64,000 nt of DNA from contig CM114271.1 of assembly GCA_050084515.1 (NCBI GenBank), positions 47,182,001 through 47,246,000 on the forward strand, written 5' to 3'. Origin of the DNA: Blasia pusilla (taxonomy: Eukaryota). Of the stretch, positions 16,226 through 59,703 are shown piece after piece. The notes under the pieces are model-generated. The model ran no database searches and was not told the origin of the DNA. It worked only from the letters and a program-made list of their open reading frames with translations. A program made the translations under genes and the position numbers. Numbering within the stretch: position 1 is the first letter of the stretch; each line of letters starts with the position of its first letter.

Positions 16226-16228
<3 letters not shown>

Positions 16229-16259: not shown

Positions 16260-16264
<5 letters not shown>

Positions 16265-20285: not shown

Positions 20286-20289
20286 TTGA

Positions 20290-23060: not shown

Positions 23061-23169
23061 AATTACTCCTAAGCTCGGATCAACTGTACCGTCAATGTTC
23101 GAAAGATGACACAACGTACAACTACGCACGTGGTCCTTCCAAACCATACCATCACATCCCTCCAATGAT

Positions 23170-36861: not shown

Positions 36862-38496
36862 ATGGGGATTCTGGGGAGCCCACCCGGTGGCGGATTCTTG
36901 GGGCCTCCCTCGGGAGCAGGGGATCCGATGTTCGAGAGCTTGGCAGCGAATGTACTGAGGAGCTTGCAATTCAGCTATTTCATGATGAAGGGATTCAGCT
37001 CCACCAGCCGAGTTCTGAAAGATCTGGGAAGATCGAGCGAGGGGGGATTGCAGGGGAGTGGCGGGAGCTCTGAATGGCGAGGTTCGGGATCGTTGAGGTT
37101 GCGGTTGAAATTCAGAGGCGGTAGAGCAGGAATGGGAAGATTGTCGGTGTCGAGAAGAGGTAGGGGCGATGGTAGAAGACCCAATTGTGCGAACGACAGC
37201 TACGGTGCTCGACCCACCGAGAACGGATGTGTGGGAGAGAAAAGCTCTGGGAATCCAAATCATGGCGATGGTGGCAGAATGAGGAAACCCGCGCGCCCCA
37301 TTGCAACTGAAAAGGAGTCGGCATTCGCCAGATCGGACGATGTGAATGGTGATCTCGCTTCGGAGGGCAGCGTTTTTAGTGGGATGGCAGAGTGCGAAGC
37401 GAGATTGGCACAGGAGACCGTGCTCGTGAGACGATTCACCAGCGGATTGACCAACAGGACTCTGTCGGTGACGGGACTGGCCGCTGTAGATGGAGTGTCG
37501 CACAAATTGAAGCCCATGGGCAAAGGGTTTGCGAAGGGTGTGAAGATGGCCACTGGCGTCGTGAAGGGTGTGAAGACGGCGACCGGTGTGCTTCAGAAAT
37601 TCCAGGCTCCCGCAGAAGGTGTTCTCATGGGGTTCGGAGCTGCAAACGGCGTCGCCCTGGGTTACGAAGCGGCGAAGTTCATAGTCAGCGGTGCCAAGAT
37701 GTCCAAGAATTTCGCCTCCGTTTTCAAGTTCACCAAGAATTATGTCAGTGGAGCGGCCAGCGCTGCCGGAAAGAACCCTGCTGGAGACAAGGTCATACGA
37801 GAGAGGCTCATGAAGGGCCTCAAGGTTTCCGATGGAGCTTTGACCTTGGTGAAGCTGACGAAGGAATTCGGTAGCGCTGGTTTGGGCTCCAGCTTTCCCG
37901 GTGGTCTTTCCAGTTGGGATTTGATAACCAAAGGCTACGAAGCATCCAATAGCCTTCTCAAGGTTTCGGAAGCCACTCTTGGATTCAAAGGGGGGATAAG
38001 TGTTTTGGGCAAATTCTTCCTGGGCTTGAAAGGGGCGATCGGTGGAACTGGTGTGGTGGTGAAATCTGTTTTTCTCACGAAGGAGATCTCCCTGGTTCTT
38101 CTCAAAGGAGTGGGCCTCTGGAAGGGACTGGGGGAGGTTTTCAAAGCCGTCTCGGAGGGCAAAACGCTGGGAGATGTACTGATGTTCAGAGGTGCGAGTA
38201 AGGACAATGTGGAGATGCTGAAAGGCGAGTATGTGCTGGAAATTGCCACGGTGGTCTTTCGCAAGGGAGTGTTCACCAATCCCAACTTCTTTGAGCTCCC
38301 GTTGAAGTTACTCAACCCTCGTTCTGCTACTGGTGGTGACGGCAGCAGAGACGCTTCATCCTCACTCTTCGCTTCTTTGGCTTCTCTTCTCCTTGCTCAT
38401 AGCCAAGCTGATGAGGCTGGTGATCCTGATGATAATGGGTCTACCTACTCGAGGTTCTCCTGGTCATACTTGTTCTATCTCTCCCTTCCCAGCTAA
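36862..38496 (+). CDS. Intronless uncharacterised Gly/Ala/Lys-rich protein, about 544 aa
   Basis: A 1.6-kb stop-free frame in a window where the TE ORFs are riddled with stops. First ATG is at 36862 (alternative 36928). The N-third looks disordered and the C-half looks amphipathic-helical. No family recognised. Confidence 0.65.
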   Translation: MGILGSPPGGGFLGPPSGAGDPMFESLAANVLRSLQFSYFMMKGFSSTSRVLKDLGRSSEGGLQGSGGSSEWRGSGSLRLRLKFRGGRAGMGRLSVSRRGRGDGRRPNCANDSYGARPTENGCVGEKSSGNPNHGDGGRMRKPARPIATEKESAFARSDDVNGDLASEGSVFSGMAECEARLAQETVLVRRFTSGLTNRTLSVTGLAAVDGVSHKLKPMGKGFAKGVKMATGVVKGVKTATGVLQKFQAPAEGVLMGFGAANGVALGYEAAKFIVSGAKMSKNFASVFKFTKNYVSGAASAAGKNPAGDKVIRERLMKGLKVSDGALTLVKLTKEFGSAGLGSSFPGGLSSWDLITKGYEASNSLLKVSEATLGFKGGISVLGKFFLGLKGAIGGTGVVVKSVFLTKEISLVLLKGVGLWKGLGEVFKAVSEGKTLGDVLMFRGASKDNVEMLKGEYVLEIATVVFRKGVFTNPNFFELPLKLLNPRSATGGDGSRDASSSLFASLASLLLAHSQADEAGDPDDNGSTYSRFSWSYLFYLSLPS

Positions 38497-41400
38497 GATC
38501 TTCATAGTGTGCCATCTCTGATCGCAGACTGTGTATATAGATAGGAGCTTTTCTGCAGAATTCACTGTATTCTAGATTCTAGCTATCCAGTATCCATCCA
38601 GCTCGAGCGTGGAATTTGGGCGCATTTGTCAACTAAATCGTAGAAATCGCGAACCTTGTCATCACTGGACCTTTATCATAGTATAGACGACACACACAAG
38701 CCAGAAGAGCTGAAGATAATTAGAGTATCGCACCACCCAGTTCCTAAACGAATATAATAGGGGGTTTCTGAGTGAGATCTAAATTACACCACGGCATCAA
38801 TCAGAGTTCATGTCATGAAAATATGCACGCTTTGAGGAGTTTTTGTAGGGTTTGCGGACGAACGTTGAATTGGCTCAGCAAGCAACTCAGTTATAGTAAA
38901 ATAGATGCTGAGACTGCACTCGCGTCAGTGAAAGCATCCTTGAGAGCTATCACAAACGGTTCTTGTAACTCATATGACTATTAATACAAAGAGGTATGGA
39001 GCTCAGGAAACTTCAGCCACTTCAGGGGCTTTGTAGTGTTGGTTTGTTTCCTCTCCAGCCTTCGTCATCACCTGGGGCAACACCAGGCATCCTCGATGAT
39101 TTGCTGTTTGTCGATAACTATTGTTGTTCAATGTAGTTGACCGGATCCGTGAAGGAACTTCCCTGTATGTACGATGATGGTTTGCTGTTTGTTAATACAT
39201 AGCTGTTATTGTGCTCGTTTCGTCGGCCGAATCTGTTGGCAGCTGTTGTTATGTTTGTATCACTGATCGGATGGGTGAAATGGCTCCAGATGTATCTGCA
39301 CAGGGCACAATGATGGTTGCATAACGATATCAAGGCATAGTGCAGGTTTTTGTCAGTGTTTCGTGATGGGTGTGTGTCAACTCTGCAAGTCTGATTGTTA
39401 CCAGTGTCATGCCTACCTCTCCCATATATCTGATCAGTGATGGATCCCAGTCATGAAGATGTGTTCCCTTGGATTTGAGTCTCAGTCGAATAAGGATTGG
39501 AGGCAGTTTTCAGTCTTTGTCCTTAGCAGTTTCGGACTTGCTTCAACCAATTGAAGTCGAGTCGGCAAGACAATTGGAGATGATACAAATGTGGAACTCT
39601 GCGCACTAAGAAGGACAATGTGGAAATACACGCCAGAGAGAAATTGACTGAACACAATTTCATCCGCCAGAGGCAAAGGAGTTACAAAGTTGGACCATCT
39701 CTCCGATGTGGCACAGAGATCTAGGTTTCAAAAATTGCAATGTTTCACTTCATGAAATGGATCCATGCGAACATTTACAGACTTCACCTTCATGGAACAA
39801 CGATGCGCAAAGATGGTGAGGTCCGGATACAGAACTTTGTAGAGATAGTGATGCAAAAAGAAAACTTCGTACTCAAAAAATTACGCAGAGCTAACCTCGC
39901 AGAGAGAAAAGCGTACAGGGAACCTTTGTAGAGGAGAAATACGCAAAGAAACCTTCGCGAACATAAAACGTTCGAAGATGTTGTGACGTTCAGTAAAATG
40001 CGAAATTTGATATTACATTAATGTCAAGTCTTGGAGTCCGCATTAATTGTTCACCGTCATTCCACCACAAATAGGTGTAGACATCTCATCTAGCCCGGTG
40101 TCCATTGTCCGCAGCTCTATCATTCACCCTGATCGGATCTCTGTACGAGAAATCTACATAAAAAATCTGTGTTACATAAAGGCGATCGTGGATAGATAGT
40201 TCGGCTCAACAACTTAAAGATTTGCGACAAAAATGGGAACCATGTGACTATACCCGCGTTGCCACCTTCGGCCGTTCCGCCATCGCCATTGTCGGCTATT
40301 TGCACTCTTTGCGATTTTACTTTGCGAACTATTTTTGCGATCCCTAGCAACATTAGAACAGAAAGTACTCAATGATCCGGAGGTGTCAAGAGTTGAAGGC
40401 AGAAGGAGTTGTCAAGGAGTTCTTAACCAAGAGAATTGAGACTGCAATCAAGAGGTTGAATCTTCAACACTAGGATTAGAATTGTAAGGGGTTTCAACCC
40501 ATAGAATATTTTCTAACGAATTTTAGATGGGAGCATGTATATGGGAAGGTCATTGGTCAAACGTTAGTCTCCGCAGAGTTTAGGATCGACGTGACCTCAT
40601 AATCAAATGCATCCATCGTTCCATTGTGGAACATTAGAACTCTAGTGGGTTCACAATAGGATGGAAACACGGCATAATCTCATGAGCCAGATGTCGTGTG
40701 AATACGTATCATTGCGAATATACATTTGTTTTCATGAATACAAGTCTAAAATCGATCCAAGTATGACTCCTACAACGGTAGGCACATATGTACACAAACA
40801 ATCAAGAAACACCCCAATAAAAGTGGTCGCTACATTTGGTCTTTCCCTCTCCTCATTAGTGGCTCTAACACTTATGGTTATTTAGTTGTGAGGAATTTAC
40901 ACACAAATCTATAACAATATACTCTCTAGATGCAATCCTAGCCCACCCTCAACATAAGGAAATCCGAGGATTACATGAGCTCTAATGTGTCTCTAGATGA
41001 ATCATAATGGGAAGATAAGGCACAAAATGAGCCTCAATGGGAATATACCTCCTCTGGGCACCGTAATGGATGACTTGTGCACACATATCACCTCTCCATA
41101 GTAAGTTATTGCTTACACATGGAGTACATAACGTACTCCTTCTCTCCTAAGTTTCCACATGGTCCTCTCTATGATACCAAATGGGTGAAGGAAAGGCACG
41201 GTCCTCTCACAAGAGGAAAATTCTCATATATGATAAGTCACCTTGGGCAGTGTAGATCCAAGTAGCTCCATAAAAAGTCAAAGCACCATATGGTGCAACA
41301 TGGTACTCTTGAAAGGGTACCCACTCATGAACTATGTACCACACCACTTGAGAGCAAGTCATATATGACCTCTCAAAATGGGCAAGTATAAGATCCTCTT

Positions 41401-42179
41401 AAGGCCCTCGATATTATCTCGCCCTACCTCTCATCTCCCATAACCAAAATATGAGCTGCAAAAGCGAAACACAAGCCTAGAGAGATGTCTCAAAAGATGA
41501 TGGTTTGAACCTAGGAGAGCATGATTGAATATTGGATATAACTTAAGGAAATCTCCGGCCCCATAAGAGTAAAATTCTAGGGAAACTATAACATAGCTTG
41601 TAACATGACAAAGTGTTTAGGGGACAAGTCCAATCCACTAAAGATCCAAATAAATGCAGGAGAATAGGTATAGAAATGGGTCTCAAATTAGCACGATGGT
41701 AGCTTGGGTTGGAGGCCATAAGGAACAACACATGAGGAATCTTGGATAAATATATGGGGAAGATTTCTCTATAACTATATTTAAGGGGTAGGGTCTTCAA
41801 GGGTGTTTGGAACATGAACCCCATCTTAAGAACCATGGGGGTGACCCAAGGGCACACGATGGATTGAGAATCTTTGAGAGGTTGACTTTAGGATTTTTCA
41901 AGCTCACGCCACTCTTGTGAGCTCTCCATACACAACTCCATAAAAATTTTAGAATCATTCCCACACATACAAAATCATCTTATAAAAACAACAAACCAAC
42001 AAGCTTGGATTCTCGTGAGCATCCCCATGAGCAATTTAATGGAAAACACAATCCTCACCTTGCAAAATAGACAATAAGCAACATCTAACGTGCTCCAAAC
42101 CTCCAAAGCTCCCATTTTGTAAAGATGTCTCTCTTTCTTATGGAGCTCTCATTCTTTCTCATTTACATGCACATTCCAT

Positions 42180-42314
42180 GGCTCTCTCTAATGTCAATCC
42201 AAACACATTCTCATAGTGAGAGGCTTAGGTTACTTACAACGCAATGAACACCATAACGCCATTATCTCATGGAAAGAGGTTCAACAAAGTAAGAATCAAC
42301 TCCCGAGTTCTTCC

Positions 42315-42600: not shown

Positions 42601-43547
42601 CAACATATTATCCTTATCATGGACCTACTCCCTTAAACGTCGGTCTAATAAGTCATATATGGAAGCTTGTATTCAACCAATTATGCTCTTCTTTCCGATC
42701 TAAACTAAACACACTTACATTAGCCATGATTTGAGTCAACTAGTCTTGTGTCTCCCAAGTTTGAGTTTTGGATCATCCCTGAAGCGCAAAAGATCTAGAA
42801 AGGGCCAAATACCGACCTAACCTTTCACTCCCTAATATATGCAAGTCATTCAAGACTTGGGACAAACTTATTTGATACTGTAGGAACCTCAAATGGTGCT
42901 AACGCACATAGCAATCACAAATGCCCAATTAACCTCGAACGACTCCCTAACCATAACTTAATGTTTGAGTCAGAGATTAAGGTCCGAGGTTGACATTCAT
43001 AAGTAGACTACATGTTGCAAAAAGATTTGCATATCTGCCAAGGCATTGAGCTCTTCACTGCAATCAGCCACGCTATGAGGATCCAACGCCATGATGACCA
43101 TGCGCCTAAGGATGTCCACCGTATCCACTTCCGCATCATATTCGATCACCAACTTACGCCACACATGCCCCCCATCCAATTATAGGAATTGCTGAAACTC
43201 AACGATTAGTCGTGCCACACTCAATTTTAGGGGTTATAATTTGTGACTACTTGTTATGTTCTATCGAAAAAAAAAAATTGATGTTGACAATGAGTTGTTG
43301 TACTGACATATTCAGGTTTCATATTTGATATGTGCTTCTTTTCCATTTCGTGTTATCTAGCGTGTTGTAAATCAACTTGACAAGTATGATGACATCGAGA
43401 GGGGATATTCTGCATTTTGGAGGTTTGCACTCAATGCACTGCGCGTTAGTATGCTGCCCCCATAATTTTCACGGAGTTTTTATTTTAGGGCATTGTTTGA
43501 GGGATGTGCCATAACTTAATTGCTCGCTTATGGATGTATTATGACTG

Positions 43548-44302
43548 TGTCGTGCGCATACACATCGCTACACAACATACATCGTTCTCACCGAACACAC
43601 ACACAAACACGCATGATCCCATGCTAACTCATGGCATCCAAACAACGAGACAAGAAATACTAAAATATCTCCAATAAAATAAGATCTAATCTCTCTCACA
43701 ACACCATAGTTCTCACATGTCTCTCTCAATGTCAAACCAAACCCACTCTCCTAATGAGAGGCTTGGGTTACACAAAAGGCAAGCAAGACCATAGCTCCGC
43801 CGCCTCATGCCAAGAGGTTCAACAAAGAGAGAATGAGCTCTCAAGTTCTCTCTCCTTGAGGTATACCCGTCCCCTCTCCCAAGCTCTCTCCATGGTAACC
43901 TATTCTCCCAAGTCACCTCCTTGGCTCTTGACCTGATGTAGGAGGTCAAGGGCCACTTACCAAAAATATAAAGTCGATCATATACTCAAAATAGTACTTA
44001 CCTAAAATAGTAAGTTCCTCAATATGGCTCCAAATGAGCCGAAACGAAGGGAAAACCTGCTCTCTCAAGTTTCTCGGGGCTTCAGCAGGTCATCATCGAC
44101 CTACTGATGCTTCTCCTCCACTACTCACAAAAGCGCTCTACTACATCTCACTGATATATCCTAAAAGACGTGATAGTTTTTGTGCGCATACACATCACTA
44201 CACAATATACATCGTTGTCACCGAACACACACACAAACACGCACGATCCCATGCTAACTCATGGCATCCAAACAACAAGACAAGAAGGGCTAAAATATCT
44301 CC
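43548..44302 (-). repeat. 3' split terminal repeat block of copy 2: A (43548-43672), B (43675-44175), A' (44178-44302)
   Basis: Same A-B-A' layout and 2-nt spacer as copy 1. Confidence 0.9.
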
Positions 44303-44491
44303 AATCGCCCCCATAGTTGGTGTTTAGGTCCCTCTAACTCCACATAGCCATCTATCCCTACCTACCATGACATACATCTCTCGGACACCAAGAGCAAGAA
44401 AGGTCGGCTGCTCATGTGACCCCATCGTTACTCGCCTTCCTGTCATCCATGTCACAGAAAATTTGGAATCGAAACCTACCTATTATCTCCT

Positions 44492-44650
44492 CTATGTACA
44501 TCTGGGACACATCCATCGTCCCCGAGGAACCCTAGTGAGAGGTGGCGTCAGACATGCCATATGCCAACCTCTCGAACATCCATCATAGACTAGCATCGTG
44601 GCGGCATCACAGGCAGAACCACACAACATACAACGCAAGCCTGCAGGAAC
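44492..44650 (-). pseudogene. PHD finger, copy 2
   Basis: LRCMLCGSACDAATMLVYDGCSRGWHMACLTPPLTRVPRGRWMCPRCT* (third Cys mutated to Tyr here, intact in copy 1). Confidence 0.9.
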
Positions 44651-44745
44651 TACTGCTAAGCTTGGATCTACTGTACCATGAATGTTAGGAAGATGATATG
44701 GTGCACAATTAGGCACATGGTCCTTCCATACCATACCATACCATA

Positions 44746-47500
44746 TCATCGCGTCCCTCCAACAAGAGAACACCGGATGGCAAAAACGTCACGAACTCTC
44801 AAGATAGTGCGCCCTGTAGTCACATCCAATATTGTCGGCATTGTCTGCTGCAAGTAGACATAATCTCCCCGATGAAACCTCTGGATAATTGGTCGATAAC
44901 CACCATCCCGAATAGTTGCATCCCTCAACGTATCACGATGTTGCGTAATCGCCAAGTTCTCGAACGCCATGGGCATCACTCTCCAAAACAACTCAGCCCT
45001 CTGAGAACATGCTCGCATCCATACATCCGAGTCATCAAGGTCCAGCACCTCACCAGCATCTCGACGAATGGCCGTAGGTAAATCTGGCTCTCGGCCATAA
45101 AGTAGCAAGTACGGTGAAAAAGACGCTAAGAATGTTTGCCTGCTGAATTTGTATCTTATTGCCAACCATGGCAACTAGAGGTCCCAATCTCCTAGGTGAC
45201 CTTTCTGCAAGCCATACTTGTGTAAACCCTTCTTCACCGTCTGCACAACTCTCTCCACTAATCCATCCCCCTCGGGATGATCTCGCAAAGTCGTGCGGTG
45301 GTCAATCAACGCCTGATCACACAAGGCGTGGAACTCACCATGAAACTCGGTACCCTGGTCGGTCAACACCTCAGCCCGTGCGCCATAATGACTCAACACT
45401 CTATCAAGGAAGGCATAAGCTACTCCCTCAATCGCTTTGTCAGGCAATGCAACCAACTCGATCCACTTTGAGAAGTGCTCGACCATCACCAACACATAAC
45501 GACTATGACACTCCGTCAAAGGCAAAGGTCCTGCAAAATCCAAACTCCATCTATACCCTAAGCCCATGATCGGTAATGGATGCAACTGTGGAGTCGGAGC
45601 ATTGAACGATGCTCGGACCCGATCACACACCATGCACCTGGCAACAAACTGTTGAACGTCAGTCTGCATGCCTCGCCACCAATACTTAATCTGGAGCAAG
45701 CTGTACGTCCGCTTCACCCCAAAGTGACCCAACTCCTCATGGGCATGCTGCACTAGTCGTGCTCTTTGCAAAGGATGCGGCACTACGCGTACTCTACCAT
45801 CCTCCCAAACCCTCAAAACATGTGTCTCCTCCCAACGGAACCGTTTGGCCCGCTGTATGATCCGATCCCGCTCTCTAGCACCCACAGTGCTCGCAATCTG
45901 CCAGTACAAAGGTACTCCAAGACTACTCCATCATCATGAATATCTCGGCCATCTCTCGTCTCCTCACTGGCCTCGGGATCCAAGGACTCTCCACTAGACC
46001 TCGCCGTCAAAGTCTCTACACTCTGGCTCTCCATAGCCAACATGCCTAAATAGGCACTGACTCCTCATCACTCTCTCCATGCCATCGAGCTCTAGTTGCA
46101 TCTCGCTGACTCGGGCATGGGTTACAACTCAATCCATCTGCATCTTGGTTGAGCGTCCCAGGTCTATGTACCACGTGAAAATCATAATCCTGCAACAACA
46201 GAGCCCATCTCGCAAGCTTCCCTGTAAACTTTTCGGACTCCATCAACCACTTCAGTGGTTGATGATCAGTGATGATGGTAAAGGGGTTGCCGAATCAGTA
46301 ACATCTGAAATGCGCGACAGCCCACACTACAGCCAAGCATTCACCCTCATACGAGATGTACTTCGCCTCTCCAGCCTTGTTTGAGCGGCTAGCATAAGCC
46401 ACCACAAACTCTCTACCCTCATCATCATGCTGGGTGAGCACCGCTTCAAGCCCCAACATGCTCCAATCTGTGTGCAACTGGAAAGGACGCCCCCTGATCA
46501 GTCTCCTCAAGATGGGCGCGGATGTCAACCTATCCTTGAGCAATTGAAATGCTTGCTCCTGCTCATCCCCAGAGTGCCACTCGTGATCCACCTTAGTCAG
46601 CAAGGTTAGCGGCTTCACAATCAAACTGAATCCCTTGACGTACCGCCGATAGAAGTCCGCCAATCCCATGAATGCGCGAACACTGCTCACATCTGTAGGG
46701 CGTCGAATACGTGAGATAGCCTCTACCTTTTTCTGCTAAACACCAAGTCCTCTGGGTATATCGTATGACCCAAGTACTCAATGTGATCCTAGAAGAACTT
46801 GCACTTGCTTGGATGTAGCTTTAGCCCATGTAATTGCAATCGTCGAAATACCTCCTCTAGATGTCGCTCATGCTCCTCAACCGTGGCGCTAAAAACTACG
46901 ATGTCATCAATATAACACCTAGCAAAATCCAGACCTGCCAAGATCCTATCCATGACCCTCTGAAACTCAGCCGGGGCATTCTTTAACCCAAATGGTAAGA
47001 ACCCCCACTGGTACAAACAATCCTTCCAGTCAGGTTGGATGCCCCAAAATGCCGTCTTATGTCTGTCCTCCAATCTAATAGGCAGCTGATGGTATCCGGC
47101 TCGCAAATCTAATGAACTAAAGACCTTTGCGTGACCAATCGCATCAAAGATCTCCTCAGGGGTGGGCATGGCATACCTATCGGACTTTGTCTGCCGATTG
47201 ATAGGTCGGAAATCCCCACACATCTGCCTATCCGTCCTGTTGCCATGCACATCCTTCTTGGCGGGCATGACAGTGGCAGATGCATACTCCCCATGCGACA
47301 TCTCCCTAGTCTTGCTCCAACCAAGTATTGGCTCCTACTCCGAATCAGAGCCCTCTCCATATCATTGTTCTTGTAAAGTCTTCGGAAGATCGGCGTGTCA
47401 CTCGACAACTCAATGCGGATCCCCGGTCCCTTCAACGTACCCAAATCCTCCAAGCTAAACGCAAAGCAACTCCTATAACTCTGGACGAATTGATGTATCC
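44746..47500 (-). pseudogene. RT - RNase H - integrase, copy 2
   Basis: RT: LDLRAGYHQL, LPFGLKNAPAEFQRVM, CYIDDIVVFS. RH: FQLHTDWS, VVAYASRS, EGECLAVVWAV. IN: HAHEELGHFG..CMVC (HHCC), SLDFAGP, LTDQGTEF, GDGLVERVVQT (DDE). The RT-RH-IN order is the Gypsy order. Confidence 0.95.
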
Positions 47501-47899
47501 TGCGCCGCTCTCCTCCTGTCAACTTAGGGCCCATATCTGGCTCCCAAGTCTCCATCGTGACTATGGTAGGACTCTCCGGTGTGGGTATCGGTGGTTGCTA
47601 TGGTGCAACCCCATCTCCAACAACAACACTCGACCGCTCTCCTACAACCAACTGCAAACTCTAATTTCCTCCACGTGCAGTGCCCGGAACCACGCTCGAT
47701 GCTGTGGCTACCATCTCCTAGCGTACCTGCAAAACATGTTGTGGCTACCATCTCCTATCCCAAGGGTGTCTCTCCCGATCTCCCCTGGTATGTAGATCTC
47801 CTCGAGTCTGGCCCTGAGCCACTGTCTCCAACGTCTCGGTAGGCATGGGGCTCACGAACGCAACCGATGTGATCTGTCGCGATCTCATACGGCGTTGCT

Positions 47900-48860
47900 C
47901 AGCCACTCCCAAGCTGAGAATCCATGTCAAGCAGTTCAGGTCCATTGCTTGACCCAAGACATGGCGTCGTGATGCCTCTGATACTGACGGTACTGCCATC
48001 ATACGTGTGGGAAATCCCTTTGCTCGCTCTCTCTCGTCGACGTTGGGCTCCACAAACCGCTGAACCTGGTCATCCCAAACCAAGCTAGGGCCGGCCTCCT
48101 TGTATGTGTAGGAAGCGGGAAAACTCACAAACGTGGGCAAGGCTGCCCGCGGCCTGCCTACCCTGTTGACCACAATCAATGTTGGTTGATCATCGTGCCT
48201 CATAGCCTGTGATCGACAACCTCGATCCAGAATGTAATCCACTAACAAATGGGAGGGGCGGTTCACTCTCGCATACGCCCTCGATAACACCCCATGGGGC
48301 ACCAAGTTGGTCCACCATAGACGCGGGCAATGGGCTCTCGAGACTACACTCGCCGCATCCAAGAACACTACTGGGCCGATCCAGGCACGCACCTCATGAG
48401 CACTCGTCACCAGTCGTGACATGGAATCTCCTAAGATCGGCACATTCTCCAAAACGTAGGCTGGAGAACAAGAATGGTGCTCTTGCAACTACCATAAGAC
48501 CCTCAACATCTCCCAAAACAACCTGGACTGAGTGTCAGCCAACCCGTTGCCTCGTCCAACACTCGATTGGCCCTGACATGGCCAACTGGCAATGACCAAA
48601 TCAATGGTCCCTACCCAATCTAAGTCATGCGCTCCCAACAACGAAATATCCCTCGGTAGGGAACTCTGTACCCCTGTACCACGGACGCAGACAATAAGTC
48701 GGGAAAACATAGGCGTAAGTATGCCACATGTCGTAGTGAGACACGCCTCGCAACATCATCACTCTCCACATACAGGTACTACTGCACTTGCACTCTTGCC
48801 TGCAAAATAGTAACTAACCCAGTGCTAATCCCTCCAAAGAGATCTAACACTCGAATACCC
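47900..48860 (-). pseudogene. DNMT3-like C5 cytosine methyltransferase domain, copy 2
   Basis: GIRVLDLFGGISTGL (I); PRDISLL (III); IDLVIASWPCQGQS (IV, catalytic PC); QSRLFWEMLRVL (V); YVLENVP (VI); LDAASVVSRAHCPRLWWTNL (VIII); ERERAKGFPTRM...SRRHVLGQAMDLNCLTWIL (IX-X). Confidence 0.93.
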
Positions 48861-49259
48861 TCCTCTGGGATACACCACACAATGGGTGTGGTATCCAAGG
48901 GTGTCATTGTTGCACTCCCTGCTACCTCGGGTTCCTCAGACCCGTCATGCTCCGGTGCAAACGCCTCGCTCCACGCGGTCTGCATGTGCTCATCTGCCGA
49001 TCGTCGAAGCTCCTCAGTCGAGCCCCACAACGGCACTTTTCCTCCACGGAATGCGGCTACCATAACACTCCTCTCCAAAGAAATGTCAGGAACGGGAGTA
49101 TTCTTTGCATGGACATGTCCCTCAATCAAATCACTAGGCCAAGTGATGGCCCTGTTAAATGTTGCTAACGTCACCACCTCTCCTCGCCGTCGCTCGATCA
49201 CTGCACCTGTAAATCGAACGGGTAATGAGCTAAGGCACCCATCACCTGACTACCATCTT

Positions 49260-49620
49260 GGTCTGTAGGATGGTGACTCCTCCCAGTAATCTAGGGAAAA
49301 CCCCATCGGTTATAACACTGCTCCACCAACCAAGACGTCGTAGGACTCTGCATCAGTCACTATCGCCTTGGCTCGCACCACGGACTCATCTGTAGGATGT
49401 CCTTGGCGAATCCTCACCATGACCTCTTGTCAGGTGATATATTGTGTGGTACTCGCTCGACCCAAGGATGTCTGTATCCAGAATGGACAACGCTCCACAT
49501 CGGCTCTCGTCAAGCCCAATCCTCTGAATGACGCTTTCCCCAACATCAGGGGTTGCGCTCTTGAATCCAACAAGATGCGTTGCGGACTAAACGCTCTATC
49601 TTCGGGACTTACCAACTGGG
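49260..49620 (-). pseudogene. Aspartic protease, copy 2
   Basis: QRILLDSRAQPLMLG ... DAESYDVLVGGAV. Confidence 0.85.
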
Positions 49621-50479
49621 AGACCTCTCCTCGGTTATCCAGCAACACAACACCAGGAGAAGCCATGGCCACCTCTATCGCGGGTCGAGCGGGCATCTCC
49701 ACCATCCTAGCAGCCGCAGCATGCCATGAATCTGACGTGGACGGCCCGAGCATCCGCTTCAAGGGCAAGTCCATCACCTCCTCTGCAATCACCTCTAAAC
49801 GTGATGTAGGAACTCCAACTCCACGCTCACATAGCATAACGGCGAGCCAAAAAGCCTCGGCGGGCGTACTCTCCAATGTCATAACATCGGAAGCAGAAAA
49901 TAAATGAGCGTGGTACACAATGGTGGCTGCCCCCAACAACGTGCTCGACACATGCCCCTCTTGAGCATCAACAATAGGAGTCGCCGCACTTGCTTCTCCC
50001 ATCGCCTTCTGTGCCTGCATACCAACAACATCACCAGCTCTCTAGGAACTCTGATCAGGACCCATCGATGGGGTCCTCATCGCCTCGTACAACGTGAAAG
50101 ATTGAGGAAGCCTAGTCTGTTTCCTGGCTTCCCCTAGCTGTGGATCCAACTCTGCGGCTGCTCCATATGTCACAATTGCGGCGGCCTCCATCTGGGCAAC
50201 CCCGCATATCCAACCAGGATCCTCCATATCTTTGGCTGCTCCATATGATGTCGATGCCAGGGATCCGGCATCGGGTAACCTCAATGCCATAGTGGTAATT
50301 TGCTCCTGTAGTTTTTGTATCTGAGCAGCCATCCCAGCCTCACGTCCGGCGTCTCCCTCGATGCGTCTAGGTGGTGGTACTCTACGTTCCTCCACGGGCA
50401 GCTCCACCATCCTGTCGGGCAACTCCTTGTCCCCCAACAGGACCACGTGGTGCACGATCTCTAGGCCCACTCGGACTGC

Positions 50480-51148
50480 CTCCTCACTCTCGTGCCCTCT
50501 CTGGCCCTGGGTTCGGACGTAACTCAAGATGTAAATTGAAACACCTTGCGCGTGTATGACCATACCTCTGATAATAGTCACACTGATAACCTCCTGGTGC
50601 AACACCATCTCCTCCTCCATGCTGAGAAACACGTCGTGACCCTGACGAGTGCAATGGCACTGATGATGGGCTCCACCACATGACCAACAAGTAATATTAG
50701 GCGGCTACTGCTTAGCCGTATATGAAGGCGCAAGTCTTTATGGCACGGCCTCCCAGTATCCTCCCTGAGCTCGTGGTGCCACAGTCGACCTATCTCGGAG
50801 TCAAAGTTGTTGCACATGTGGTGCAGACAATCGTGACTGCTCTCGCCCAGAACCCATGGTGGCCAAGCTCTACTCCGCCATGTTGCGCTGAATGTTCTCG
50901 GCAATCCTAAAAATATATCTCAACATAGGGGAGGTGTTCATAAGAAGCACCCCCTCCCGTACCCGTGTCTGCAGGGTCCGGTCCAGCATCGCGTACCATG
51001 ATTGGATAGCCTGAGCCTCTATCACCCCCTGAGTGACGTTGATCAACCAGCGCAAGCGAGTGTAAGCCTCACGCAAACTCTCACCCGGGCGCCTCTGGAA
51101 GTCATGGATGCTCCACAACTTCTTCGTCCGTACCCCCTGGTAGCTCGC
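50480..51148 (-). pseudogene. Gag (truncated), copy 2
   Basis: DFQRRPGESLREAYTRLRWLI and the knuckle CDYYQRYGHTRARC. Confidence 0.8.
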
Positions 51149-52531
51149 GTTGACACGTGGACTTTTTACCCTCCTCCTTTGATGACATGTGTAAAAGAAG
51201 AGTTAAACTGGCGTAACAGAAAAGCTGATGTCTTTCACGCGTGATATTCATTTTCATGGGGCATTATGCTAGTATTCATGATGGAGAAACCAGATTAGAG
51301 AAATAAGAAAAAAGAAATTAATTATCATCTGATAAGAAACAAACCTCCATGAAAAGGAAAGAAATCCCCATAAAAGATGCACTCAAGGATTAAAACCTAA
51401 ATACATCCTTCTTACGACATCGTAGAACAAAGTGCCTATCCAAACCAACGTCCAAGGAGAATTGGAAAATAGTGTAAAGCTAGCCAGTTAGAATCCGAAA
51501 TTGACGACGCCCAAGAAATTTAGCTGGTTGAGATTCTGACGGCTTTAGGGGACATTCTGCAAAATGGATGGCCGAAATTTCTTGAGCCAGAAATGTGCGG
51601 CTTGCTGGGAGGAGTTTGCCAGAATATTTCTGCTTCCGGTCACTTCCCCTGGATTCTTGCCGGATTGTATTTTACGGAGGTTGGAATTTTGCTTGACCAC
51701 TTTCAGGTGGTCGGAACACCGAATAGAAGGCGAGAACCATTAGATTCTCATCAGGAAATCTTGGCCGTCTGAGGTAGAGCATCTGCAACGTAAGGTTTGG
51801 AGTTGAATCGGGAGTCAGAACTTCGAGGCGAGTTAGGAGCCTTAGCGCCTAGGCCTCTGGGGAACGAGTCACCGAGGCCTGCGAAGCCGAAGGGGTCCAT
51901 TCCCTAGAGTCCACACTTTGTGCTCGAGCGGGTCGAGCGACTTGAGCCTCGAATGTCATTTGCGTCTTCACTCAGCCGCATCTCCCAAATCCCATGCACA
52001 TTGTGGCTATGCTTGTCCAAACTTCAAAGTGCCGAGTTTTTTCAGAGTTTCCATTCGATTCTTCACCCTGAGTTCTTGACACGGCTATTGCGGCGAAGCC
52101 GCACCAGAGAGTCAAGTGCTTGCGAGTTGGCTTCAAGGTTCAGGAAGATGTTTTTGAACTACCAGAGTATTACTTGTAATATTTACTATTACCCAGTTTC
52201 TTTTACAGGTTGTCGGCTCCAAGAGGGTGTTATCATGTGTACAAGTTTTTTTCTGATATTTTTAATATTAATCTGTGGATATCCAAAATTTAGTTTTGTT
52301 CCCACGTTAAATTTCTGTCCAAATTTTTGCTCTCTAGCTTATTTCCGTTTTTTTTGCAAGTCGTCAACAATAATCCGGCCGTTGGTATATTCCCTGGAAA
52401 AAATAAAATCATGTGGAATTCCACCTTTTCTTATTCATTCACTCCCACAATCTAAAGACTTAAATTCTAAAGACTAAACACTCTATTCACTTTCAAGTAC
52501 ATCTATTGAAGTTTCCCATTCCACATTCTAT

Positions 52532-52666: not shown

Positions 52667-54881
52667 CTACTTAATAGGTGTTTCATTGTTGTCTTCTCCC
52701 ACATCTGAAGACAAATATTTTTCTGGACTAGCAAATATATACCTAAAATGGGCACAAGTTTTCCATACCACAGACTCAGCTAACAACTCCTCATTATCAA
52801 AGAAAGATCCTTCTAAGGAAATTCTCAAAATAACATCTAAGTATTTAGTCGACAATCTATTGCGAGATTTGCTTTTGATCATATTCTGAATGGAGAATGC
52901 TCTCCCACAAATGACAATACTCACACATTGGACTCTAGCAATATTTTCTAAAACCAAAAAGTTTGAAAATTTACATTGCAAAGAGGGACTCCAACTTACC
53001 ATAGCCCATCTGAAGTTGCGATCCTTCCACTCTGTGGTAGCCATCAGTTTGAAAGACTGAAACTCTTGTTTCACAATAGGAGAATTAATTAGAGCAGGTT
53101 GCAACTGACCCTTAAGAGGTAATTCACCTCCAAAATGACCACACAAGTCATTAAGATCCTTACAACCCCAACTATTCAATCCCACCTGTCTAGAAGGCAT
53201 GTGCAAGGGGTTTAGAATTTTCATTGCACCAATGAGATGGTTATCACGAAATCGTTCCTATAAAGCTGAACAAACACTCTCAGCAAATCTTTTCTGAAAG
53301 AACAAGGCAACCTCCAAGTCCCTACCTGTACGATCGCGGGACATCTCTATACTATGGAACCTTTTACCCCTTACCTCGGACTGTAAGCGTCGAAGATAGC
53401 CACCTTGAGGCCCAAAATCAGGTAAAATGTGATAACCGGTTTCTTCAGAGAAGGTTGATGCATTTAAGTCATGTTTTTCCATCACAAAATTCATAGTGAT
53501 GGAAGCTATCTCGGAATTTACAATACTCCCTACAGTGCTAACATCCACAAACTTGTACTGAAAAATCTTGCTCAAATTTGCAAGCATGGAAAGAATATCA
53601 GCCAGAAAATACATGGTAGATTATTTGGAATGATCTTAGCTTGTTAAATAAACTACCAACATTCCCATCATCTTCCGAAGGAGAGATATCCCTAAAATAA
53701 CTCAACACCGATTCTAGAGAATCACACAATGTGGAAACAGCTTGCCATCAAGATAACCATCGTATTTTATGGTATCTTTTCATGACTCGTTGGGAGTCAT
53801 TGAACTTCTCCTGCAAAGATGTTAAGACTGTTTTCCTCTTGGAGAACCTCCGGAAGTAACCAGCAACAGCATTGAGAATGGAATCTACTTTAGTAGAGAT
53901 CGACTTGCAATTAGTTGCTTTCGCAGCAGACAAAGCAGCAAGATTTTTCCTATGAGCAACACAATGAACAGATAGAATGTAGGGGTTCACCTTTTGCTTC
54001 ATTTGTGAAGCTACCCCTGTCTGGCTACCTACCATTGTTGAGGCCCCATCAGATCCAAATGCTACCATCTTGGTAAACTCCAACCCTCCGTCCTTGATTA
54101 GTTGCAACAAGGTTTCAGTAATGGCATTAGAAGATTTGGATTCGCATTGAAGTAATCCTAGAAAACAACATTTTGCTTGACCCTCTTCAAATGAAAGTGG
54201 CAAACACAACTAAATGACCTGTAACAGATATATCGGTGGATTCATCAATCATGATACCGAAAAAGGGAGAAGCCTGCACTCTAGAAAGAGTTCTTCTCTG
54301 TAGAACTTGGGTGATATAATAAGATATTTCACTGCAACTCTTTTCATCGTGGTAAAGATCTCTGGTTATAGGTGCATTTACAGAAAGCATTAACTTATAG
54401 AGTTGGGGAATTTCAAAAATGGAATTGCCTCCTTCGCAAGGAAGTATGCACACCTAAACAATGTTAGGAGGGCTACTTCACAAGTTTGGTTTGCTGTCCC
54501 AATGGCCTTGGCCATCGATTGCTTACCTCCATTTGCAGCCCATGACAACTTGATATGCTCATTGGACTTGGCGTGGTCAGTGAATGCAGAGACTTTGCAA
54601 TTGATTGCTCCATCTCTAGCAAAAGCACTCTTCCCCTTACCCTTCCTACATACTTTACAAAAAATTCTACCAAGGGCTGAATCATAGTCAATCCATTCGT
54701 ACATTGAGTACCAAACGTCCTTCCAAGCTACGCGAACTTTCTCAGGTAAGGCTGCACTACTGCTTGACGTAGGTTTTTCATCTTTATCATCAAATGAGCC
54801 AAAAAATGCAATGATATTTGGAACATCGTTCCGGCATCCCTTGTCTAAGAAAGCACTCATGGTCTTCTGTCTCTTGGCCAT
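52667..54881 (-). pseudogene. hAT-superfamily (ZNF862-like) transposase, copy A
   Basis: MAKRQKTM start; Zn finger IFCKVC..FTDHAKSNEH; FFGIMIDESTD; AFGSDGASTMVG; VHCVAHR; IRWLS; C-terminal dimerisation region AFSIQNMIKSKSRNRLS. Frameshifted. Confidence 0.9.
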
Positions 54882-57416
54882 TAAACCACAATAAATAGAC
54901 TCGAATGCGGGAAACAAGTATATAAACCAACAGGTGGCCAAGGCTCAAGCAAATGGCCTGTTCTTTCAAATCAGATGGAAGAGTTCATGCAGATCTAGAG
55001 CTACGAAGCTTCAAGTCAAGAACGCGAACTTCCAAAGCACTTACTAAACCCTAAACTTTACTTCAGTAAACTTAATCTAAACATCTGAGAATTTGTGAAA
55101 AAAGGTACTAATCTCTGCAAGCTGGAAATTGAATCCACTACCCAAATATGACATTCGAATTGAACCAATCCCCAAGTATGAGAGTCCGGAGACCAATTGA
55201 AAAATGGCTACAACGAAAGCCGATTTGCAACTTCAAGACTTCAACGGGGCTCACTGTGAATCAACAGCCAAATCATGTTACTGAAAAACGAAACAGAAAA
55301 TACACTAACGCTAAACTGAAGTACGGATCTGCGGAGGAAAAGCGTAGAGCAGCAAAGTAGCAAAAACGAGCAGCAGCAAATCAGAGAGCGACAAAACATC
55401 AAACATTCGGAGCAGTAGGAATGGAGCGGACGTCGACAAGAATGTTGGGGCAAGGCCAAAACTCATACCAGCAAGGCTGTCTTGCAAAAGCGAGCAGAGC
55501 TGTCGTGCATGAGCAGACGTTGAGGGAAGATATTGGGGCAAGGCCACAGGGTCAAAACTCAGACCGCCAAGGCTATCGTGAAGTTGAGCATGAGCCAACG
55601 TTGAGCGGAGTTGCTGCGCAATAGTAGACGTCGAGCGGAGCTGCGCTGTAGAGAGAGAAAATCTACGGAATCGGAGTTCGGCTGCTTCTTCACTGTGTAG
55701 TGAAGAAAAGAGTTTGGACACGGGAGAATCTCAAAGAATTTCCAAACTCGAGTGCGGAGTTGGGCAACTTCAGCTGCTTCGACACTATGTAGTGAAGAAA
55801 AGAGTTCGAATGCTGGAGTCGAGACCGGGCGGGAATTTGGCAACGCTTTGCCAACGTCGAGTGAGAGGAGAGGAAAACTTGTCGAATGAGGGGGGGGAGG
55901 GCCTCCCCGGCGTACTACCCCTAGGGCCCAGCCTCCCTGGGCCCAGGCTCAGAAAGACCAAAGCCACAGCTTCCCCCGTAACCCGGGCTAGAAAGCCGTC
56001 GATGGAGATCGGACGGCTAAAGGGGCATACGGATTAGGGTTCAGCACTGTCCCACTAAGTTTTGACGGTGCGGATCTCTACATAAAAAACTAATCTCCAT
56101 CCAACCTTCCATCATGCCATCCAATCCCCCTATGCCACCTACGTACCTGGTTTCTGATAGTCAGGAATTAAAGCAACAGCATTCCGTGAGGCTTATTCCG
56201 GGAAGCCATCGTCTTCTGCCGGCTTCAGTCGGCCCTCCGCCATATTCGGCACATTCATGCTGGAATCCAGACAAGCACCGTCAGTCCCGACATCGCCCCG
56301 TCAAATTCTGGTACATGTGCAAGGCTCGCCAGAAGTCCTTCGGGAACTTCCCCTACTAGATCGGAAATTCACGAAAAGTGTCGGCAAACACTACTCGTGA
56401 CTCCGGATCTATGAAAAGATTGGTTCTTCTTCGGACCAGTTCAGCTAGCTATTCACTTGTTTTTCCTCCCTTTTTTTTCTACACGATCGCGAACGTCATT
56501 TGCGTCTACAGTGTCTTCTGAGTCCCGTGCACACTCCAGTGTGCGAAGTGCTCTTCCAAAGTTCTGAGTCTTTTCAACATTTTGAGTCCTTGTTCAATTC
56601 CTTACCTTGGGTCCTTGATGTGGTTGATGCGGCAAAGCCCTGGTCGAGAGTTGAGTTCTAGGGAGTCGGGAGTAGGCGCCTTGGAGTTTTTTTGGCTGTT
56701 TTCTAGGTTTCTGCTCGAGTGGTCAAGAGTTGGCATCCCGTGGGCTTTCCTGCTGTTATCCTTTTTATGGCCGAGCGTTGGGGACTTGGGATTCCGTATC
56801 CTAGGGCCTTTCCGAGCTATTCTCTCTTTTTTCTGCTTGAGTTTCTACACTGATTGGTGCCCGAGAGTTCATGTGCTCGGGCCAACTTGGCTCTTTTGCA
56901 ATTTGGCTTTTATCTCGAGTGCCCGGGAGTGTGGAGGATGAGACTGAGTGTCGAATGTGTAACCTTGTCAACTTGCTCTAACTACTCAAATCTCCAGTGC
57001 TCATTCTATAGCTTGAATCCTCGACCACCACGTCTTATGTTGGAGCTTTGCGTTTTGTGGATATTGCACTCTAGAGCTTTAATGTTTACACTTTTGTGAG
57101 AGGGTTTAGGCTGCTTTGTTTGACTTGCCTAAGTTTCTTCTCAGCCTTAGCGTTGCTCTACTCATGAGAGTCAGAGGCCCTATTTTTCGCTCTTGATCTT
57201 GGTTCTGGGTCTGCTTTGCTCTCGGGTTTGGCAGCAGAAAGTGATTTTGGCTAGAGTCTTGGGTTTTTCGACTTGGGCCTTTTGCTATGAGTCTTGGACT
57301 CTCGGATGCAACCTTTCTTTTGTTGTGAGACACTTTTTCTCTTGTCCAAAACATGAGGCCTTGTGCCCGGCTCTCATTTAGACCTAAACCTTTGTTAAAC
57401 CTTCATTGTCTCATAC

Positions 57417-59703
57417 GTGGCTAAGAGACAGCGAACCATGAGTGAGATGTTGGCCAAAGACGTAAGCCGAGACTTTCCAGAGATCTCAAGCCGGTCAGGG
57501 TCCTCAGATGGGAAGGAAGTTGAGAATTCCGGTACTCCTTCCAGTAGTCTAATTAAGAAGAATCAACTGGCTTGGAAGGATGTCTGGTACAACTTATTTG
57601 ACTGGATAGAGTTTCATGTAGAATTTGGAAGAATATTTTGTAAGGTTTGTAGACAAGGAAAGGGTAAAAATTCCTTTGCAAGGGATGGTGCCATAAACTG
57701 TAAGGTTTCAACCTTTACAAATCATAGAAATACGATTGAGCATATGAAACTTTATTGGGCTGCTAATATAGGAAACAGGTCGCTGGCCAAGGCCATTGCC
57801 ACTACTAATTGGACTTGTGACCAAGCCTTGTTAATATTGTTCAAGTGTGCATACTTCATCGCTAAGGAATCATTGGCTCTTGCCAAATTCCCGAATCTGT
57901 GTAAGCTGTTACTTTGAGTGAATGCACTAATTACCCGAGATTTATACCAAGATGAGAAGAGTTGTGTTGATATGTGTTATTATGTCAGTCAGGTAGTGCA
58001 CAGAAGGACACTTTTAAAAGTTCAACAATCTCCTTTCTTTGGGATCATGATTGATGAGTCCACTGATATTTCAGTAACACCCCATCTCGTTGTATTTGCA
58101 ACTTACTTATTAGAAGGGCAGGTCGAGAATTCCTTCTTAGGATTTTTGCGATGTCTAGAGAAGTCTTCAAATGCCATTACTAATCTTTTGGAGTTGATCA
58201 AGGACTTAGGACTAGCGAGTTCAAAGACGGTGGCTTTTGGATCAGATGGAGCCTCAACTATGGTATGTAGTCAGAATGGAGTAGCATCTCACTTGAAGTT
58301 GAAGGCAAACCCTTTTTTGCTCTCTGTACACTGCGTTGCACATAGGACCAATATTGCTTCTTTGACAACAGCCAAAGGACCAGGTTGTAAAGATGTATCT
58401 ACAGAGATTGATTCCATCTTGAATTCTGTAGCTGGATACTTTAGAAGGTCCTCAAAGAGGAAGTGTGCTCTTGCAACTTTGCAAGAGAAGGTGAATGACT
58501 CTCTACAGGTCATGAAGAGATATCATAAAGTTCGTTGGTTGTCTCGATGGCAAGCCGTGACTACTTTGTGTGACTCCCTTGAATCTGTTCTTGCCTATTT
58601 CAAGGATATTCCCTGCTCTGAAGATGATGGTAATGCCACTAACATGTACAACAAGCTGAGATCATTTGAAATGATCTATCAATTGTACTTTTGACAGACA
58701 TATTGTTTATCCTTGCTAATTTGAGTAAGGTTTTCCAATACAAATTTGTAGATGTTAGTACTATTGGTAGTATTGTGAATGCTAAGATTGCCTCTATTTC
58801 AATGAACTTTGTAATGGAGAATCATGACTTGAATGCTTCTACATTCTCGGAAGAAACATGTTATAATCTCTTACCTAATTTTGGACCCCCTAGTGGATAC
58901 TTGAAACAATTGCAATCTGAGATTAGGGGTAGAAATTTCCATAGCATTGAAATGTTGAGAGATCGTACGGGAAAGGATCTACCGGATGCTCTAACTTTCC
59001 ACAAGAACTTTGCTGAGAATGCATGTGTAGCCTTACACATGCCACCTATCAAACTATTGTCCCTAAATCCTTAAAAAGATTTAGGGACAATAGTTTGATA
59101 GGTGCAATGAAAATTATGAATCCTCTTCATATGCCCTCAAGGTTAGTAGGGTTGAATAATTGGGGTTGTAAGGAAGTGGATGATCTTTGCGCACATTTTG
59201 GAAGGGAAACGCCTTTGAGGGGTCACTTGCAACCACCTCTTGTGAATTCAGCAAGTGTAAAGTCTGAGTTTCAATCATTTAAGCTCATGGCCACCACAAA
59301 ATGGAAAGATAGAAACTTTCGAGATTTGTGGGCAATGGTAAGTTGGAGCCCATCTCTGCAATGTAAGTTCTCTAATTTGCTTGTATTAGCTAAAATTGCT
59401 AGGGTACAATGTGTGAGTGTTGTAATTTGTGAGAGGGATTTCTCTGTGCAAAATTTGATCAAGACAACAAGTCGTAATCAATTGACGACTAAGCATCTAG
59501 ATATGGTTCTCATGATAGCTTTAGAGGGTAAGATACTTGATTATGAGGATTTTTTGGTAGAATCAGAACTCCTTTGGAAAAATTGTGTTAACTTTAGATA
59601 TGTGTATTTTAATCCAGAGATATATGTGAATGGTAAGGATGATACTCCACTAGAGGTTGCAAATGTAGAGGATTCTCCAAGTGCCCCAATTTCAAATGTT
59701 TAG
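57417..59703 (+). pseudogene. hAT-superfamily transposase, copy B
   Basis: Same motifs (IDESTD, SDGAS, HCVAH, RWLSRW, CERDFS), with in-frame stops and frameshifts. Confidence 0.9.

Follow-up and report, generated by a model that had tools for sequence, protein, structure and literature searches.

A DNMT3-like DNA methyltransferase in a Ty3/Gypsy retrotransposon family of Blasia pusilla and its bryophyte and algal relatives

Retrotransposons that carry a DNA methyltransferase (DNMT) of their own have been described from dinoflagellates and from the charophyte Klebsormidium nitens (de Mendoza et al. 2018, PMC5890265). In the accessible sections of that paper, the Gypsy-DNMT3 kind is reported for K. 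nitens only, with a Ka/Ks below 0.2. The same sections liken the repeat structure of the Klebsormidium Gypsy element to that of a DIRS retrotransposon, and spell out the "A-coding region-B-A-B" arrangement for the dinoflagellate DIRS elements. Two later sources, a 2025 paper (PMC12344493) and a 2026 preprint (10.64898/2026.05.21.726589), cite this report under "streptophytes" and add no new land-plant cases in their accessible parts; likewise, a literature search whose scope left subscription journals largely outside returned no description of bryophyte Gypsy-DNMT3 elements. Here, we analyze a 64,000-nucleotide stretch of the Blasia pusilla genome (assembly GCA_050084515.1, contig CM114271.1, forward-strand positions 47,182,001 to 47,246,000), referred to below as the window. 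It almost certainly holds two dead copies and a fragment of a multi-copy, sense-transcribed Ty3/Gypsy family with a DNMT3-like methyltransferase (MTase) in its first open reading frame (ORF1). The element is a land-plant branch of the Gypsy-DNMT3 kind of de Mendoza and colleagues and not a new kind. As in that kind, a DNMT3-like domain under purifying selection sits in a Gypsy polyprotein, and the repeats are arranged in a DIRS-like manner.

The window is rich in transposons and has a G+C content of about 40%, with two blocks at about 50%. Stop-to-stop open reading frames (ORFs) and Pfam matches identify both blocks as minus-strand Ty3/Gypsy elements, here called copies A and B. Their parts follow the same order, and they are 82-86% identical across four aligned blocks, with a 330-nt deletion in copy A relative to copy B. 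The order is that of Ty3/Gypsy elements, namely gag with a CCHC knuckle, aspartic protease, and then reverse transcriptase (RT), RNase H, and integrase, with the MTase inserted after the protease. A chromodomain, by which chromoviruses are recognized, is absent from the integrase C-terminus, and a PHD finger takes its place. The coding parts are listed below by position in the window; P numbers denote homologous proteins.

20286-20567, plus strand: solitary, strongly decayed C-terminal MTase fragment (tblastn, 39% identity to P0007 residues 1107-1200; several stops in the translation)
~21950-34044, minus strand: copy A, Ty3/Gypsy (ORFs, Pfam, repeats)
25697-25699, minus strand: copy A, in-frame TAG followed by CAA CCA at the ORF1/ORF2 boundary (sequence context)
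25961-26937, minus strand: copy A, DNMT3-like methyltransferase with three stops and three frameshifts (alignment)
27697-29704, no strand assigned: copy A, foreign insert of ~2 kb, absent from copy B (gap in the A-B alignment)
~43.55-51.15 kb, minus strand: copy B, Ty3/Gypsy (ORFs, Pfam, repeats)
44492-44788, minus strand: copy B, PHD finger after the integrase (PF00628, E 1.2e-9)
45175-45930, minus strand: copy B, integrase with H2C2 zinc finger (PF17921, E 4.4e-18) and rve core (PF00665, E 4.8e-11)
46046-46735, minus strand: copy B, RNase H (PF17919, E 3.2e-26; tblastn to P0012)
46789-47334, minus strand: copy B, reverse transcriptase (PF00078, RVT_1, E 2.3e-28)
47598-47600, minus strand: copy B, in-frame TAG followed by CAA CCA at the ORF1/ORF2 boundary (same context in copy A)
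47890-48868, minus strand: copy B, DNMT3-like C5 methyltransferase, motifs I-X, with two stops and one frameshift (ORFs, PF00145, alignment)
49430-50041, minus strand: copy B, aspartic protease region with LLDSR (ORF; aligns with the protease part of P0007 and P0012)
50042-51157, minus strand: copy B, gag with CCHC knuckle (tblastn to P0007)

The initial annotation, made from the DNA letters, had claimed a C5-MTase catalytic domain in both copies, on the same strand and at the same polyprotein position, with motifs in canonical order. This is what the ORFs and the alignment reveal, and the observation of a transposon-borne C5-MTase is confirmed. In each copy, the domain lies between the protease (LLDSG or LLDSR, the latter an active-site G-to-R change in copy B) and RVT_1; in relatives, the protease region matches PF13650 and PF13975. 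The motifs run I (LDLFGG), IV (PCQ), LFWEM, VI (ENV), VIII (AHxxxLWWTN), IX (ERERAxGFP), and X (LGQAM or LDQAM). The canonical order I, IV, VI, VIII, IX, X is therefore kept in both copies, each having one substitution in motif VIII, at different arginines. In copy B, LDLFGG lies at 48830-48847 (minus strand), PCQ within the ORF at 48489-48755, and ENV, RAHCPRLWWTN, ERERAKGFP, and LGQAM within the ORF at 47745-48488. The PCQ-bearing piece passes the PF00145 cut-off of 22 bits (31.3 bits, E 1.9e-7), while the copy A piece stays below it (17.1 bits, E 0.0038); among intact relatives, scores rise to as much as 58 bits.

The two copies share none of their lesions, in agreement with what had been noticed in the letters. 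Copy B has stops at 48779-48781 and 48489-48491, a frameshift near 48660-48667, and an R-to-C change in the AHRxR of motif VIII. In copy A, three stops and three frameshifts are joined by the changes W to C before PCQ, R to H in motif VIII, and G to D in motif X. Such differing breaks are expected for decay after insertion. When every break is written as X, each copy can be aligned with 17 intact homologues along the entire domain, and in 13 relatives F-G-G, GWPCQ, ENV, AHRxRxWWTN, ERERAMGF, and LGQAMD are invariant or nearly so. The domain is not a chance resemblance because word-indexed searches returned 30 + 60 homologues, and 619 representative clusters matched at E<=1e-30. Homologues reach far beyond the two copies, and the proposal that the domain is a family component, not a one-off capture, holds.

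As to the type of enzyme, the broken window ORF on its own gave no meaningful match in the PDB. An intact Calypogeia homologue matched DNMT3A first (8e-11), followed by DNMT3B/DNMT3C, DRM, and the bacterial enzymes HaeIII and HhaI. A family profile built from 13 sequences placed DNMT3A (4e-24), DNMT3C (6e-22), and DNMT3B (2e-21) ahead of tobacco DRM (2e-11), Arabidopsis DRM2 (7e-8), HaeIII (2e-7), and HhaI (3e-6), with neither DNMT1 nor DNMT2 among the PDB matches at <=0.01. When an AlphaFold2 model of the relative P0017 (mean pLDDT 69.7, pTM 0.71) was compared with Foldseek, the top matches were only DNMT3A/B/C catalytic domains (E ~5e-15, target TM 0.70-0.76). A protein atlas returned generic C5-MTase clusters (Streptophyta, phage) and did not discriminate. 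The DNMT3 affinity is a ranking of profile and fold matches and not a phylogeny; by that ranking, the domain is closer to DNMT3 than to DRM, DNMT1, DNMT2, or bacterial enzymes, as the initial annotation had read it, and it is non-permuted.

The position of the domain was described initially as lying between protease and RT within the polyprotein, and a continuous gag-pol frame was proposed as a check. The position stands, but the domain is not simply part of pol. It is the last domain of ORF1 (gag-protease-MTase) and closes that frame before a conserved stop, after which ORF2 encodes RT, RNase H, integrase, and the PHD finger; the two ORFs share a frame but are parted by TAG or TAA. Each window copy reads from the MTase tail (..VAP) into an in-frame TAG and CAA CCA, and the RT N-terminus (QPP..ETWEP) comes next without a change of frame. 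The same layout is found in a set of 80 related metagenome loci, seven of which have an uninterrupted MTase domain. For six of these seven (L002, L012, L030, L043, L050, and L053), ORF1 ends 79-113 residues past the domain, the in-frame downstream ORF is RT, and the stop context is TAG or TAA, CAA or CAG, and then CCA, CCC, TTA, or TCA. In L043, ORF1 is intact (1369 aa) and encodes protease and PF00145, and both L043 and L050 have an intact 1047-aa ORF2 (RVT_1, RNase H, H2C2, rve, PHD). The RT N-terminal motif was found in 54 of the 80 loci; an in-frame stop lies at most 35 codons upstream in 52 of them (37 TAG, 15 TAA), and stop-CAR-YYN, mostly CAA-CCC, in 51. Most complete gag-protease-MTase proteins in the databases also end 57-143 residues past the domain. 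The sequence stop-CAR-YYA is the leaky-stop context of tobamoviruses such as tobacco mosaic virus (TMV), and murine leukemia virus (MuLV) uses a leaky UAG in gag-pol expression. The conserved context suggests programmed readthrough of the TAG or TAA in this family as well.

Relatives of the element are found in bryophytes and algae; annotated ones that share its gag-protease-MTase order are from Marchantia, Calypogeia, Sphagnum, Closterium, and K. nitens. Word-indexed searches (30 + 60 matches) returned 16 clusters from Marchantia polymorpha, one from Calypogeia fissa, and two from Sphagnum. A HMMER search of 1.84 billion representatives, with a profile that includes some flanking columns, gave 13654 matches at <=1e-3, 2724 at <=1e-10, and 619 at <=1e-30. 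Among 216 proteins, the MTase is on the protease side in 40, between RNase H and integrase in 120, and alone in 56. The integrase-side group includes "pol" proteins of Scenedesmus and Monoraphidium, and the basal protease-side members are from Closterium (Zygnematophyceae). In a FastTree tree of 173 domains, the two positions need a single change between them. A quick IQ-TREE tree of 50 domains places the window pair (support 100) within an 11-row clade (100) with Marchantia, Sphagnum, and Calypogeia, the last being nearest to the pair (84, not strong). The fork that joins the bryophyte-type (97), Klebsormidium plus Closterium (87), and integrase-side groups is without support. As a side observation on motif IV, GWECQ in place of GWPCQ, a Pro-to-Glu change beside the catalytic cysteine, is present in P0030, P0043, P0044, P0049, P0050, P0056, and P0062, which belong to the algal integrase-side group.

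The kin of the element are bryophyte elements. The occurrence in land plants that had been claimed for the family is thus borne out by relatives annotated in Marchantia, Calypogeia, and Sphagnum. The initial annotation had also set the family against the charophyte case, and this holds only in part: the bryophyte members stand, but they are not a separate discovery. In the K. nitens protein KFL_013780020 (P0204), zf-CCHC is followed by an aspartic protease and then PF00145, the same CCHC-protease-MTase arrangement, and the A-coding-B-A-B repeats of the window copies are those given by de Mendoza and colleagues for their DNMT elements.

To estimate how strongly the domain has been maintained, we relied on dN/dS by the Nei-Gojobori method. 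Between copies A and B, the MTase gave 0.24 (373 codons, dN 0.15, dS 0.63), with RT at 0.28, RNase H at 0.21, integrase at 0.20, and the PHD finger at 0.37. Gag (0.65, possibly inflated through local frame errors) and the protease with its linker (0.77) were higher. These values overestimate omega during the active phase because both copies have decayed since insertion, the A repeats of copy A being 90% identical. Among the six intact loci, pairs with dS from 0.26 to ~1.7 gave dN/dS of 0.126 (dS 0.26), 0.11, 0.095, 0.16, and 0.17, while one near-identical pair gave 0.88 (dS 0.06) and several pairs were saturated. The MTase is consequently under purifying selection of a strength like that on RT and integrase. 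The initial annotation had named neutral evolution as an outcome that would speak against it; the domain is constrained, at 0.24 between the window copies and 0.10-0.17 among intact relatives.

Raw reads were mapped to the window at >=85% likeness, the whole-genome shotgun (WGS) sample being ~1% of its run. Summed WGS depth was ~1300-1700 in the MTase bins and ~2000-3100 in the RT and integrase bins, compared with 2.3 in the last bin, outside the element. If that last bin is single-copy, the family amounts to several hundred to about a thousand copy-equivalents. In three stranded RNA-seq runs, first-mate depth was 25-190 on the plus strand and 0-16 on the minus strand over the whole element, MTase bins included. 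By the convention for stranded libraries, a first mate on plus stands for minus-strand RNA; minus being the coding strand, the family is transcribed in sense in the source organism. No more than 27-33 RNA reads per run reached >=99% likeness, which makes other copies the main source of the transcripts. At the frameshift site of copy B, a one-letter length difference was present in 496 of 1294 DNA reads and in 13 of 42, 15 of 52, and 34 of 69 RNA reads, which means that many other copies differ from B at the frameshift. Two further observations concern base composition. Relative to copy B (43500-51500), family reads show C>T 416 and G>A 379 times against T>C 220 and A>G 184, in DNA and RNA runs alike. 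The copies have a CpG observed/expected ratio of 0.71-0.72, compared with 0.54 elsewhere in the window, which does not discriminate.

The ends of the element are not two plain long terminal repeats (LTRs). They are split direct repeats in the order A-coding-B-A-B, as in DIRS/Ngaro-type elements, yet the element has a DDE integrase. The repeat units in the window are the following.

33535-34044, minus strand: copy A, 5' repeat unit A1 (90% identical over 521 nt to 22079-22599)
22599-22721 (B1), 22079-22599 (A2), and 21952-22076 (B2), minus strand: copy A, 3' repeats (repeat alignment)
44182-44305, minus strand: copy B, B1 (repeat alignment)
43711-44173, minus strand: copy B, A2, LTR-like (87% identical to the copy A 5' repeat at 33585-34038)
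43548-43675, minus strand: copy B, B2, the 3' terminus of the element (94% identical to 44182-44305)

Copy A accordingly reads A1-coding-B1-A2-B2, and copy B reads B1-A2-B2, its 5' end having been lost at 51148. There, the alignment to copy A stops, and 778 reads continue past the point with an agreement of 0.93. At the 3' terminus of copy B, 2504 DNA reads diverge (agreement 0.4), as expected at an element end. The unrelated locus L046 has the same A1 ... B1-A2-B2 arrangement (7430-7752, 16205-16752). The letters ATAG(T) recur before A1 and at every B-to-A junction; no target-site duplication was assigned, and inspection of the window copies by eye recognized no primer-binding site. Together with the placement in ORF1, the conserved stop context, and the PHD finger, the A-B-A-B repeats are anatomy added beyond the first reading of this DNA. 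Separately, a 120-135-nt stretch at 42168-42311 is 77-78% similar to parts of the A repeat (43716-43849, 22124-22254, and 33580-33700) and may be the remnant of a further element end. Within the foreign insert of copy A, a plus-strand ORF (27853-28200) resembles a different Gypsy integrase in its C-terminal part, and a tandem array of a 70-nt unit occupies 28226-28455.

The PHD finger offers a hint as to where new copies might be placed. For the intact PHD finger of L043 (8023-8226), the best solved matches were CHD4, PHF12, PHF21A, KAT6A, KDM5, ATXR5, DPF3, UHRF1, and AIRE. PHD fingers of these proteins read unmodified H3 tails and not H3K4me3, which suggests that the finger on the integrase may target chromatin without H3K4 methylation. 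Targeting to H3K4-unmethylated chromatin follows the same logic in the ADD domain of animal DNMT3. Taken with the ORF structure, this leads us to a joint mechanism that we regard as evenly balanced between right and wrong. Because of a leaky stop, the MTase would be produced along with Gag and protease in amounts far above those of RT and integrase, and the protease would free it inside the particle. There, the MTase would act as a de novo cytosine methyltransferase on the new cDNA of the element, or on it at integration, such that a new copy would enter the genome already marked. The PHD finger would steer integration to chromatin with unmodified histone H3 tails.

Several observations weigh against this mechanism. 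Both window copies are dead, and nothing at the locus speaks for activity there. In the one published assay, done in yeast, the MTase domain of the Klebsormidium Gypsy element gave no methylation, a result that its authors, in the accessible part of their report, call inconclusive (PMC5890265). The Closterium proteins P0245 and P0140 each appear as one continuous ORF, although the gene models may have spliced the stop out. The case for readthrough is drawn from a conserved, TMV-like context, in which CAA-CCC is more usual among the loci than the classical CAR-YYA. DNA depth in the MTase bins reaches only ~55-60% of the value for RT and integrase; the domain may be missing from some copies or more diverged in them. 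Lastly, many of the 80 related loci come from few metagenomes and are not independent.

Other explanations for the presence of the MTase have to be weighed on the same data. The enzyme could act in trans on host chromatin, in the neighborhood of insertions or at other loci, with a change of the methylome mattering more than marking of the cDNA. Encoded upstream of the stop, it would be made in Gag-like amounts by a family that is abundant and transcribed, and an effect on the host epigenome is raised for dinoflagellates in the accessible sections of de Mendoza et al. (PMC5890265); the same sections, however, describe the K. nitens methylome as not unusual compared with land plants, and we consider action in trans unlikely overall. 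Somewhat more doubtful still is the idea that the domain no longer methylates DNA and either methylates the RNA of the element or is a component of the particle that binds nucleic acid or has a structural role. It would accommodate the negative yeast assay, the GWECQ variant in part of the wider algal group, and the RNA methylation that is raised in accessible passages of the same paper for a LINE-borne DNMT (PMC5890265). However, the protease-side clade keeps the full set of catalytic motifs, and fold and profile are closest to the DNA-acting DNMT3, with DNMT2 absent at <=0.01.

Two remaining explanations are disfavored by the selection and copy-number data. A captured host fragment might be carried as a neutral passenger by a successful element, as could be supposed from the broken domain in both window copies and from the small share of related loci (7 of 80) in which it is uninterrupted. 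Yet its dN/dS of 0.10-0.24 equals that of RT and integrase, its place in the polyprotein is constant among relatives that range from Klebsormidium to liverworts, and the breaks differ between the copies in the manner of post-insertion decay; this explanation is highly improbable. We hold it just as improbable that the gag-protease-MTase "genes" of Marchantia are domesticated by the host and that the window copies are their pseudogenes and not transposons. The Marchantia annotation does treat them as ordinary proteins, but terminal repeats and an in-frame downstream RT-RNase H-integrase are present in the window copies, the family has hundreds of copies, and some of the 16 Marchantia clusters are fused to RT and RNase H (P0012, P0031). 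Self-methylation of the cDNA by a particle-borne MTase remains our preferred reading, at the even balance given above. A broader proposal is more tentative, and we put it forward as a possibility that may well prove wrong: one ancient lineage, running from Klebsormidium-grade algae through Zygnematophyceae to liverworts and mosses, would carry its own epigenetic toolkit (a DNMT3-type MTase at Gag level and an H3-reading PHD finger), would pre-methylate its cDNA as a stealth or self-limiting strategy, and would still be expressed and possibly mobile in land plants, including Marchantia.

Among window ORFs outside the elements (14, then 31 more), Pfam matches were only to hAT-type transposase domains. 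Three hAT-type remnants, at 52667-54944 (minus), 57399-59703 (plus), and 61955-63802 (plus), share ~74-76% identity with one another and have the domains zf-C17orf113, DUF4371, and the hAT dimerization domain. A region of 54% G+C at 36450-38500 has open frames of ~550 codons on both strands without a Pfam match.

What a transposon gains from carrying a DNA methyltransferase, an enzyme that hosts use for silencing transposons, is the question raised by these elements. Bryophyte members number in the hundreds of copies and are transcribed in sense, and the annotation of Marchantia polymorpha includes ORF1s that look intact; this moves the question to a tractable land-plant model. An MTase encoded in ORF1 before a conserved stop, and an integrase that bears a PHD finger, provide concrete, testable parts of a mechanism. 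There is also a practical consequence. In the genomes of bryophytes and algae, many gene models called "DNA (cytosine-5)-methyltransferase" are ORFs of transposons, and a count of the DNMT repertoire of a host should leave them out.

Compared with known systems, the MTase has the catalytic fold and motifs of DNMT3A/B/C and plant DRM, which are its best profile and fold matches. Unlike these host de novo methyltransferases, it has no PWWP or ADD domain on the same chain. Its stretch between motifs VIII and IX is ~30 residues longer than that of DNMT3A, and it is non-permuted, whereas DRM is permuted. Chromoviruses are Ty3/Gypsy elements with a chromodomain on the integrase; our element likewise has a chromatin-reader module at the integrase C-terminus, but its reader is a PHD finger. 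As in the leaky-stop systems of the TMV type and of MuLV, a stop codon parts an upstream from a downstream polyprotein. In contrast to leaky-stop gag-pol systems, the upstream ORF also holds the protease and the MTase, and the context is mostly CAA-CCC and not CAR-YYA.

Among transposons, the Gypsy elements of green algae with the order RT-RNase H-MTase-integrase-PHD (for example, the Scenedesmus sp. PABB004 "pol," KAF8056149) have a homologous MTase, 32-41% identical to the window domain or to P0007, and a PHD finger after the integrase as in the window. They differ in that the MTase is between RNase H and integrase and in that some have GWECQ. SymbioDIRS-Dnmt3 and SymbioLINE-Dnmt of dinoflagellates are, according to the accessible sections of PMC5890265, retrotransposons with a DNMT of their own, as is the window element. 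SymbioDIRS-Dnmt3 shares the A-coding-B-A-B repeats, and its DNMT3-like domain methylates CG in yeast (PMC5890265, same sections). These dinoflagellate elements, however, are DIRS elements (with a tyrosine recombinase) and LINEs, while the window element has a DDE integrase, a gag CCHC, and an aspartic protease. The closest described system is KnitGypsy-Dnmt3, which, as far as the same sections of PMC5890265 describe it, has a non-permuted DNMT3-like MTase in a Gypsy polyprotein and DIRS-like repeats, as does the window element, and a Ka/Ks of <0.2, compared with a dN/dS of 0.10-0.24 in the window family. What sets the window element apart from KnitGypsy-Dnmt3 is that its nearest named relatives are from Calypogeia, Marchantia, and Sphagnum, with low identity of its MTase to the charophyte members.

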